Assembly: GCA_902588975.1 (NCBI GenBank)
Contig: CACIRJ010000001.1
Location: forward strand, 85,594 to 149,593
Origin: an uncultured Pelagibacteraceae bacterium
Lineage (GTDB): Bacteria; Pseudomonadota; Alphaproteobacteria; Pelagibacterales; Pelagibacteraceae
DNA length: 64,000 bases
Reading direction: 5' to 3'
Below the pieces are notes generated by a model, which worked only from the letters and a program-made list of their open reading frames with translations, was not told the DNA's origin and made no database searches. Each line of letters starts with the position of its first letter. Position 1 is the first letter of the stretch. Position numbers and translations under genes: made by a program. Below are positions 48,821-54,309 of the stretch, piece after piece.

Positions 48821-49096
48821 TTAGAGCAAAATTCCCTCAGATTTTAGTAGTTTTTTCTTTGTTTTTATACCACCTTTGCCTGAATATCCACCAAGAGAAC
48901 CATCAGACCTGATTACTCTATGGCAAGGTATTTTAGGAGCATATGGATTCTTTCCTATAGCATTAGCTACAGCTCTTACAGCTTTAGGTTTATTTATACC
49001 TTTTGCTACGTCAGAATAAGTTAGAACACTACCTTTTTTTATGGTTTTTAAGAATTTCCAAACTTTAATTTGAAATTTTGTTCCTTTAAGGATCAT
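48821..49096 (-). CDS. ogt: Methylated-DNA--protein-cysteine methyltransferase (C-terminal domain only, 91 aa)
   Basis: TYSDVA, RAVANA, IPCHRV active site, GGY, LLKSEG; ATG at 49096. Confidence 0.9.
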   Translation of the reverse strand: MILKGTKFQIKVWKFLKTIKKGSVLTYSDVAKGINKPKAVRAVANAIGKNPYAPKIPCHRVIRSDGSLGGYSGKGGIKTKKKLLKSEGILL

Positions 49097-49100
49097 ATAC

Positions 49101-49146
49101 AAGAAAAAACCCTGTATCTCTGCACCTTTTCAGGTACAAAGATCAG
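49101..49146 (-). terminator. Intrinsic terminator closing the structured RNA
   Basis: CTGATCTTTGTACCT-GAAA-AGGTGCAGAGATACAG followed by GGTTTTTTCTT. Confidence 0.65.
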
Positions 49147-49290
49147 TAGTTTTTTGGCACGTCGTTGTATGCGCTACCGCCATGCCTTCCACCCCGCAAT
49201 TTTAGCGCTACTCTGCGTGGTTTTCTGCCCTCTGGGCTTGAATCTCTCGATTTTTCCCCAGATGGTCAGTTAAGAGTTGCCTCTTAATTC
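49101..49290 (-). ncRNA. Structured small RNA (~185 nt, five stems, loop-loop pseudoknot); possibly IMES-class marine RNA
   Basis: GC-rich island in AT-rich DNA; minus-strand hairpins closed by GCAA, GAGA and GAAA tetraloops; G-U wobbles pair only on the minus strand; complementary loops GCGCTA/TAGCGC; ends in stem + U-tract. Confidence 0.8.
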
Positions 49291-49381
49291 AATATAAACA
49301 TTATCATAGTGCAAATATGATTAGTATCACTTTATAGTTGATTATTAAGGGTTTTTAACAGCTGTGAATAGCGTTAACAAA

Positions 49382-49588
49382 CTATCTAGGTCCAATGAAA
49401 ATTAGAATAAAATAAGATAAATAGAAAATTATTGTTAAAACAGATAAGAAATACACTTCTAATGATTTTCCATTTTTTTTGTAAACCAAATAACTCAGTA
49501 TAGTTAAACCTAAAGATATAATTAAAAAATAGCTTGAAGGAATTTCACCATCTATATTCATGAATTCTTCGTTTAATTCATTTGACAT
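49382..49588 (-). CDS. Small hypothetical membrane protein (2 TM)
   Basis: 68-aa ORF with two hydrophobic helices, divergent from the recombinase. Confidence 0.55.
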   Translation of the reverse strand: MSNELNEEFMNIDGEIPSSYFLIISLGLTILSYLVYKKNGKSLEVYFLSVLTIIFYLSYFILIFIGPR

Positions 49589-49605: not shown

Positions 49606-49640
49606 ATTACTAATGATAATTAATTGTTATCAATAGTAAT
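49606..49640. repeat. loxP-like inverted repeat, candidate recombination site
   Basis: ATTACTAATGATAA-TTAATTG-TTATCAATAGTAAT: 14-bp arms (13/14 match) around a 7-bp asymmetric spacer, 3 nt before the recombinase ATG. Confidence 0.65.
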
Positions 49641-49643
49641 TAT

Positions 49644-50597
49644 ATGAATGAACTGACAACAGACCTAAAATCGCTTCATCAGGCAACTTTAAATAACCTT
49701 AAAAGCTCAAAGGCAAATAATACAATAAGAGCTTATAAATCTGACTTTAAAGATTTCGGAGCTTTTTGCGCTAAGCATGGTTTAGATTCATTACCAACAG
49801 AGCCAAAAATAGTTTCCCTGTATCTAACCCATCTCTCTAAAAACTCAAAAATTAGCACTTTAAGAAGAAGATTAGTATCAATAAGTATGGTTCATAAGCT
49901 TAAAGGGCATTATCTAGACACAAAACATCCAATCATCGTTGAAAATTTAATGGGAATAAGAAGGGTCAAAGGAAGTATTCAGAAAGGAAAAAAACCTTTA
50001 TTAATCAATCATTTAAAATCAATTATTAATGTAATAAATGAACAAAAACATGAGGAAATAAAAAAACTTAGAGATAAATCAATAATTTTAATTGGCTTTG
50101 GAGGAGGCTTTAGAAGAACTGAGCTCATTTCAATTGATCATGAGGATTTAGAATTTGTTCCTGAGGGCCTAAAAATCACTATTAAAAGATCAAAAACTGA
50201 TCAATTCGGCGAAGGAATGACTAAAGGACTACCCTACTTCGATAATGAAATTTATTGCCCTGTTACAAATCTAAAAAAATGGTTAGAAATTTCTAAAATT
50301 AATTCTGGACCTATTTTTAGAAGATTTTCTAAAGGTTTATCATTAACAGATAAAAGATTAACTGACCAATCTGTAGTTTTATTAATGAAAGAGTATTTAA
50401 AGTTAGCAGGTATCGAAAACAAAAATTTTGCAGGACATAGTTTAAGGTCAGGTTTTGCAACAGTAGCTGCTGATTCAGGCGCTGATGAGAGAAGCATAAT
50501 GGCTATGACAGGTCATAAAACAACTCAAATGGTTAGAAGATATATTAGAGAGGCAAATATATTTAAAAATAATGCATTAAATAAAATTAAAATATAA
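49644..50597 (+). CDS. Cre-like tyrosine site-specific recombinase
   Basis: NTIRAYKSD N-domain; GFRRTE (R), SKTDQ (K), GHSLRSG (HxxR), TGH, RRY (Y): complete catalytic set. Confidence 0.9.
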   Translation: MNELTTDLKSLHQATLNNLKSSKANNTIRAYKSDFKDFGAFCAKHGLDSLPTEPKIVSLYLTHLSKNSKISTLRRRLVSISMVHKLKGHYLDTKHPIIVENLMGIRRVKGSIQKGKKPLLINHLKSIINVINEQKHEEIKKLRDKSIILIGFGGGFRRTELISIDHEDLEFVPEGLKITIKRSKTDQFGEGMTKGLPYFDNEIYCPVTNLKKWLEISKINSGPIFRRFSKGLSLTDKRLTDQSVVLLMKEYLKLAGIENKNFAGHSLRSGFATVAADSGADERSIMAMTGHKTTQMVRRYIREANIFKNNALNKIKI

Positions 50598-54232: not shown

Positions 54233-54309
54233 TGGTCGGGGTGGTAGGATTTGAACCTACGGCCCCTTGGTCCCAAACCAAGTGCGCTACCAGGCTGCGC
54301 TACACCCCG
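54233..54309 (-). tRNA. tRNA-Pro(TGG)
   Basis: CGGGGTG/CACCCCG acceptor, CTTGG-TTTGGGA-CCAAG anticodon arm, GTTCAAATC, CCA. Confidence 0.97.

Follow-up and report, generated by a model that had tools for sequence, protein, structure and literature searches.

The minus strand of the window, a 64,000-nt stretch of DNA from an uncultured Pelagibacteraceae bacterium, holds a complete gene for an already catalogued RNA, IMES-2. In relatives, this gene very probably serves as the integration site of a phage-satellite-like element with a tyrosine integrase, which recombines at the tip of the second stem (P2) and supplies a replacement P2'-P3-P4-terminator part. Since the element brings this part with it, the host keeps an intact RNA. 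The RNA itself was already known; what is new here is the probable use of its gene as an integration site in relatives.

Rfam family IMES-2 (RF02035) was matched by the RNA over the whole model (positions 1–141 of 141) at 161.7 bits, against a gathering score of 54.7; no other Rfam family matched, and the window's genome contains a single copy. The four hairpins and the loop words agree with the catalogued RNA, with no difference in the core. A preliminary description, made from the sequence before any database search, had taken the stretch for a structured RNA on the minus strand, under selection and of the IMES class, and suggested a comparison with Rfam. Both the strong match and the covarying helices bear this out, and because of the match the window RNA is not novel as an RNA. 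Weinberg, Perreault, Meyer and Breaker are reported to have found the IMES-2 motif in marine metagenome data (Nature, 2009). IMES-2 is regarded as abundant in marine metatranscriptomes and as one of the most abundant orphan RNAs of the ocean, with no function known to have been assigned since 2009.

GC content was 46.8% at positions 49101–49290, as opposed to 27.6% in the whole window, and the RNA stretch folded with a minimum free energy of −73.6 kcal/mol (z = −6.17), a value that none of 200 shuffled sequences equalled. All five helices proposed earlier were present at the minus-strand coordinates assigned to them (Table 1), and P1–P4 matched the four-hairpin consensus structure of the family; P3 was confirmed as a hairpin, but its earlier register (49189–49220) is less good than that of Rfam. 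Pairing and kissing-loop counts were taken from an alignment of 82 homologues (79 distinct), in which 92.2% of cells were paired, compared with 77.3% after shuffling and 29–45% with slid partners. The P1 GNRA loop was kept in 81 of 82 homologues. Invariant bases were those of the junctions, the loop flanks and the GNRA loop, with no long conserved free seed in the alignment. P5 lies beyond the end of the Rfam model, and pairing between the P3 and P4 loops (the kiss) does not enter its score. A 67-aa open reading frame on the plus strand, which the preliminary description had weighed as a protein-coding competitor, is not conserved as a protein: the antisense strand was open in 27 of 92 cases (21 of them in the window's genus), its reading was shifted by 1-nt indels among relatives, and a Pfam search gave no match.

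Table 1 Features of the IMES-2 locus in the window
Feature	Position	Strand	Basis or remark
IMES-2 RNA core (P1–P4)	49154..49294	−	RF02035 match, whole model
P1 hairpin, GNRA loop	49270..49287	−	pairing in 100% of cells; two-sided changes at 4 of 7 pairs
P2 long stem with internal loops	49225..49269	−	two helices, 95.6% and 98.5% of cells paired
P2 tip hairpin	49241..49252	−	equivalent of the inferred integration core in relatives
P3 hairpin, kissing strand 49203–49208	49191..49221	−	Rfam match, alignment pairing, kiss analysis
P4 hairpin, kissing strand 49171–49176	49156..49186	−	Rfam match, alignment pairing, kiss analysis
P5 hairpin and U tract, likely intrinsic terminator	49104..49153	−	strong hairpin also 3' of homologues
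Likely promoter, conserved CAAC-N6-GTGAT block at 49326–49340	49295..49340	−	block position in homologues
Tandem 9-mer, DnaA-box-like	49363..49380	−	conserved upstream 9-mer
ogt-like gene, neighbour outside the RNA unit, ATG at 49096	48821..49102	−	PF01035, E = 1.7e-32
68-aa hypothetical gene, upstream neighbour	49382..49588	−	no Pfam match
Tyrosine recombinase gene, locus landmark in the window's genus	49644..50597	+	PF00589, PF02899

Signs of integration at IMES-2 were seen on two metagenome contigs (L273 and L301), on each of which a whole IMES-2 gene is separated by foreign DNA from another, partial copy that begins at the P2 tip. The 3' half is of the element type in the whole copies; in the partial ones it is the form usual for the host, with some decay. 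Shorter remnants of displaced native 3' ends were found in G024 and L312, and two further IMES-2 cases with the element's arm in G642 and G647. On a 1510-bp contig (L323), the gene of a tyrosine integrase (P0001) diverges from the same arm, core and element-type 3' half. A search of IMG/VR with an alignment of 17 of the 151 close relatives of P0001 returned 16 loci. One of these (L374), found by protein alone and blind to the RNA, encodes an integrase 83% identical to P0001, and the 172 bp preceding this gene contain the same arm, core and 3' half; the other 15 were distant (25–40%), and the RNA was looked for at the 83% match only. Both integrase-bearing records (L323 and L374) break off before the 3' half and the terminator behind it are complete, and the 401 genomes searched contained deleted remnants only, with no intact integrated element.

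A primase-helicase gene adjoins the L374 integrase, which together with L391 on the same contig (IMGVR_UViG_3300025082_002624) marks two small elements in tandem, both of the integrase plus primase-helicase or primase-helicase-like type. The neighbouring element of the pair encodes a small terminase and a NUMOD3 protein, and no capsid gene was seen on the contig. Judged from its predicted genes, the content beside L374 is the make-up of phage satellites.

The arm block lay downstream of 5 of 26 element-type IMES-2 copies and of 0 of 136 others, leaving out L273, which served as the query, and copies with less than 100 nt downstream. Element-type 3' halves made up 6 of 102 genome copies, spread over four genera; these halves group together, and the 5' halves of the copies mostly cluster with the host genus. 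A pattern scan of metagenomes gave 57 matches and 23 loci with model matches, the pattern favouring one 3' type by chance. Partial copies join IMES-2 at the equivalent of the window's P2 tip, where core variants differ by genus. Relative to the common core, the tip in the window has a single compensatory pair change, as in 9 of 22 cases in its genus, and this variant might resist the integrase; the window copy has no arm sequence, no second partial IMES-2 copy and no integration scar. At 20 loci of integrase relatives with 26–47% identity, IMES-2 was not found nearby, and such distant relatives sit by tRNA genes, tmRNA genes or tRNA 3' fragments. In three SAR11 genomes (L324–L326, 1400–1500), integrases 44–47% like P0001 stand beside tRNA 3' fragments and primase-like genes. 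An abrupt joint between IMES-2 and a dam gene on a T4-like phage contig (L394:2050–2149) was set aside as a likely assembly chimaera.

Pelagiphages are described as integrating in SAR11 tRNA genes, sometimes with reconstitution of the gene (10.1101/410191), and phage phiEf11 as integrating in ffs (PMC12540744). The IMES-2 case resembles such tRNA, tmRNA and ffs attachment sites in that the gene for a tyrosine integrase adjoins an incomplete copy of a structured-RNA gene and reconstitution is possible; unlike them, the IMES-2 target is missing from many relatives, and the part replaced comprises an entire kissing-loop domain, pairing code included. In its predicted genes, the element is also like the marine phage satellites called VEIMEs (PMC9618062), with a tyrosine integrase and a primase-helicase, no capsid gene seen on its contig, alphaproteobacterial hosts and a small terminase in the neighbouring element. 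The main text and seven supplements of that paper, a set perhaps exclusive of the SI appendix, name neither IMES-2 nor attachment sites, and a literature search conducted mostly without subscription papers returned no report of IMES-2 as attB.

In the window copy, the kissing-loop domain has complementary loop words, GCGCUA in P3 and UAGCGC in P4, which were confirmed as first noticed, together with the P3 palindrome. A kissing helix of 6 bp had been proposed from these words; covariation supports the helix, but its conserved form is 5 bp, because the sixth pair was broken in 25 of 79 distinct homologues. Pair 93–132 occurred as CG in 64, UA in 13 and AU in 2 sequences, and pair 94–131 as GC in 52, AU in 25 and UA in 2, neither being unpaired in any of the 79; parsimony counted six and five changes, respectively, always on both sides. 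Two kiss pairs were invariant, and the outer G-C kiss pair was broken in 3 of 79. Taken alone, the count of changed kiss pairs did not exceed the shuffle control (463/500). Across IMES-2 relatives, the predicted P3–P4 kiss is well supported, and the covariation is compatible with an intramolecular or an intermolecular kiss alike. Six natural loop codes were found. The word GUAGCGC, like the IMES-2 loops, occurs twice in a tRNA-Pro gene of the window (54236–54309), a resemblance that is probably due to chance because the IMES-2 loop word varies among homologues.

As to function, it is quite possible, if short of probable, that IMES-2 acts through its shape, with a core host protein or complex as its likeliest binding target. 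The product would fold compactly and be locked by the covarying 5-bp kiss, formed intramolecularly; a loop-E-like motif would arise from the AGUA/AA sequences flanking the P3 loop, which we take to fit the loop-E consensus, and the P1 GNRA loop would dock in the fold. DnaA may have a part in its transcription, and the folded RNA would bind its partner, predicted to be a protein or complex, neither pairing with mRNAs nor switching ogt. This reading is favoured because the conserved bases lie in junctions, loop flanks and the GNRA loop, and because Hfq and 6S RNA were not found: Hfq (PF17209) was seen in none of five near-complete family genomes (from the group G023, G073, G193, G012, G020 and G242) and 6S RNA (RF00013) in none of six, namely the window's genome and five relatives with or without IMES-2. 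IMES-2 was rejected as a 6S RNA or a 6S replacement, as it has no RF00013 match and a different fold, and 6S absence is independent of it. Counting against the protein-binding reading, among other observations, are the outer kiss pair broken in 3 of 79 and a variant in G242 that is devoid of the P4 loop. In the lysine riboswitch, the neighbouring hairpins L2 and L3 kiss, and the loop-loop helix lies next to a loop-E-like motif. IMES-2 shares neighbouring hairpins joined by a loop-loop helix and an adjoining loop-E-like motif; unlike the riboswitch, it has no evident ligand pocket or regulated gene class, and no such Rfam match.

If the kisses formed between molecules, P3–P4 or P3–P3 contacts could assemble IMES-2 into dimers, rings or cages acting as a scaffold or store, an alternative that we regard as unlikely. 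RNA self-assembly is exemplified by phi29 pRNA and the large ornate RNAs. The spacing of approximately 3–6 nt between P3 and P4 in the alignment would strain a coaxial intramolecular kiss, a 4-nt P3 core is self-complementary in 57 of 82 homologues, and in the window copy the P3–P3 duplex (−10.9) is stronger than P3–P4 (−8.0). Self-dimerisation through P3, raised in the preliminary description, is therefore possible for the window copy, but it is no rule of the family, because the 8-nt palindrome is kept in only 43 of 82 homologues and is missing in the other 39, where P3–P4 complementarity persists; steady lengths of the P3 and P4 stems would also fit side-by-side packing. A 128-nt variant in which the P4 kissing loop is replaced by a tetraloop (L116:3077–3204 in complete genome G242 and L290:1104–1231 on a contig) keeps all stems and the P3 palindrome, as self-assembly would have it; against this weight, the variant is one sequence seen twice, with one identical copy among the 57 metagenome matches and no further example among 400 genus genomes. 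The usual upstream block is missing from it, and a clpB-like gene is nearby.

Transcript data came from seven RNA runs, plus one whose type is unrecorded, in the form of contigs only, from which strand and level are not readable. Exact pieces of the window's IMES-2 were present in contigs of X4 (128 nt), X12 (114 nt) and X8 (139 nt), and exact-match contigs came from RNA libraries of several studies. Contig cover ended at 49290–49291 in X4 and X9, which belong to one study, and in X12, with X15 extending beyond; these ends give a weak hint of the RNA 5' end. Low-depth contigs in X1 and X7 extended upstream of the RNA. In some runs ogt had no RNA-contig cover, to which no evidential weight was given. 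Head-to-tail joints from 49290 to 49169–49179 share a single 5' end, differ at their 3' ends and contain added bases; they were seen in runs X4 and X9 of study P2 only, with none listed for four RNA runs from elsewhere. They are likely products of reverse-transcriptase template switching, and a circular IMES-2 RNA is disfavoured, as the joints are confined to one study. The same joints, along with the compact fold and invariant junction bases, could be taken as signs of a ribozyme or ligand-binding RNA working without protein, which we consider distinctly unlikely: the joints have the look of template switching, no other Rfam family matched, and no consistently regulated gene lies downstream.

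Among SAR11 genomes, IMES-2 was patchily distributed. It was found in 81 of 150 family genomes, in 20 of 21 genomes of one genus, and in 116 of 151 genomes of genus g5 (mostly incomplete). In the window's genus, 21 of 77 genomes had it, and it was found in none of 20 and 12 genomes of two genera or 60 of the sister family. A hidden divergent copy in negative genomes was rejected: a covariance model built for this analysis returned nothing credible in five near-complete negatives (best score 16.8 bits), and the syntenic locus had no Rfam match in 4 of 5 genomes. Near-complete genomes with the RNA (G073 and G193) and without it (G023) occur in one genus. As IMES-2 is dispensable in many lineages, a tRNA-like essential role is weakened. 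In 6 of 64 parts of the genome collection, 120 pattern loci were found, 45 of which passed the covariance model, all but one of the 45 (44) being assigned to Pelagibacteraceae, Pelagibacter or Pelagibacterales. A squid genome paper lists IMES-2 as contamination.

This patchiness, a pseudoknotted and probably abundant RNA, and a satellite-like element that targets the gene yet keeps the RNA whole would suit a role in defence, either as a type III-like antitoxin or as a decoy for phage proteins. We judge this decidedly improbable, since IMES-2 is a single unit and not a tandem repeat, the genes downstream are unrelated, with no conserved toxin gene behind the terminator and the next gene convergent in 73 of 82, and no whole copy was found in IMG/VR (seven pattern matches, none of them real) or INPHARED (no blastn match).

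The gene appears to be transcribed as a unit of its own. The CAAC-N6-GTGAT block lay 41–44 nt upstream of P1 in 81 of 81 homologues, with the anchor chosen by pattern; promoter-like sites showed no excess over chance (11 against 11.9 expected), and no convincing regulon for the block emerged in the window's genome, where other matches were weaker and coding-like. Further upstream, the tandem 9-mer, which resembles a DnaA box, occurred as TTATCCACA with at most one mismatch in 70 of 81 homologues (shuffle mean 1.3) and with at most two in all 81, the window's own copy having two; it was kept over four gene contexts, the genomes being kin and not independent. At the other end, the P5 hairpin of the window (−20.7 kcal/mol) is followed by six U at 49104–49109. 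A strict terminator scan of the window called no sites, P5 included; a hairpin of −18 kcal/mol or stronger lay 3' of IMES-2 in 81 of 81 homologues, 80 of them with a U-rich tail.

Own promoter-like block, terminator and a fitting size would equally serve a trans-acting sRNA that pairs with mRNAs, which is nonetheless very unlikely, as the only conserved loop words are consumed by the kiss and co-vary, no conserved free seed was found and Hfq was seen in none of the five genomes. IMES-2 sites vary: after mnmA (65 of 82 copies), beside the recombinase, or after genes named from their sequence as selO-like or thermonuclease-like; the mnmA site in the window's own genome is empty of IMES-2. The upstream block and the terminator accompany the RNA across several of these unrelated settings. 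From such differing sites and the clean absence from close relatives, one might suppose a mobile cassette or landing pad of little use to the host. This seems to us a very poor prospect, given deep covariation in every helix, near-fixation in several genera, the lack of a transposase or integrase of its own and an invading element that restores the RNA.

The position upstream of ogt noted in the preliminary description holds within the window's genus, where 17 of 20 further members have ogt downstream, but family-wide applies to only 2 of 82 copies. In the window, the ogt ATG lies 7 nt 3' of the U tract; even so, a cis-acting leader or riboswitch for ogt is hardly credible, with the next gene convergent in most copies and RNA and ogt each occurring alone (IMES-2 without ogt in G265 and G266; ogt without IMES-2 in G023 and three other genomes). 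In G023, the 68-aa upstream gene abuts ogt directly, with no RNA between. IMES-2 is likely a stand-alone gene with its own putative promoter and terminator, to which the link with ogt is incidental.

Other features of the locus were also recorded. Within the window's genus, IMES-2 stands beside the tyrosine recombinase, which has 70–92% identity in five of five relatives; an inverted repeat (14-7-14, one mismatch) lies at 49606–49640, directly before the recombinase start. In genus g10 (L036–L038), a gene named from sequence as RmuC-like lies downstream of IMES-2 on the same strand. Another stand-alone SAR11 RNA, the SAR11_0636 element, has been proposed near a glycosyltransferase gene (PMC2704228); a relationship with IMES-2 was rejected, the consensus being unrelated and the loop word occurring in none of eight supplement files of that paper. 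Within its supplement file 2, the consensus fitting SAR11_0636 holds a DnaA-box-like word and three GANTC words, and SAR11_0636 itself may function as DNA, not as a transcript.

The six natural loop codes offer a handle for structure tests, and the pairs of genomes with and without IMES-2 a handle on function. The evidence that a mobile element uses the gene much as others use tRNA genes, restoring it on insertion, speaks for a host need for IMES-2 wherever the RNA is present, and it points to a further, new kind of integration target in SAR11. A broader picture, in which most SAR11 lineages keep IMES-2 as a housekeeping-grade RNA of such value that a satellite landing in it carries a replacement kissing-loop domain, the satellite swaps the loop code across genera, and the DnaA-box-like pair ties synthesis to replication, is conceivable, although we hold it to be doubtful as a whole. 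If it were true, the swap of the loop code by the satellite may retune partner binding or self-assembly of IMES-2.
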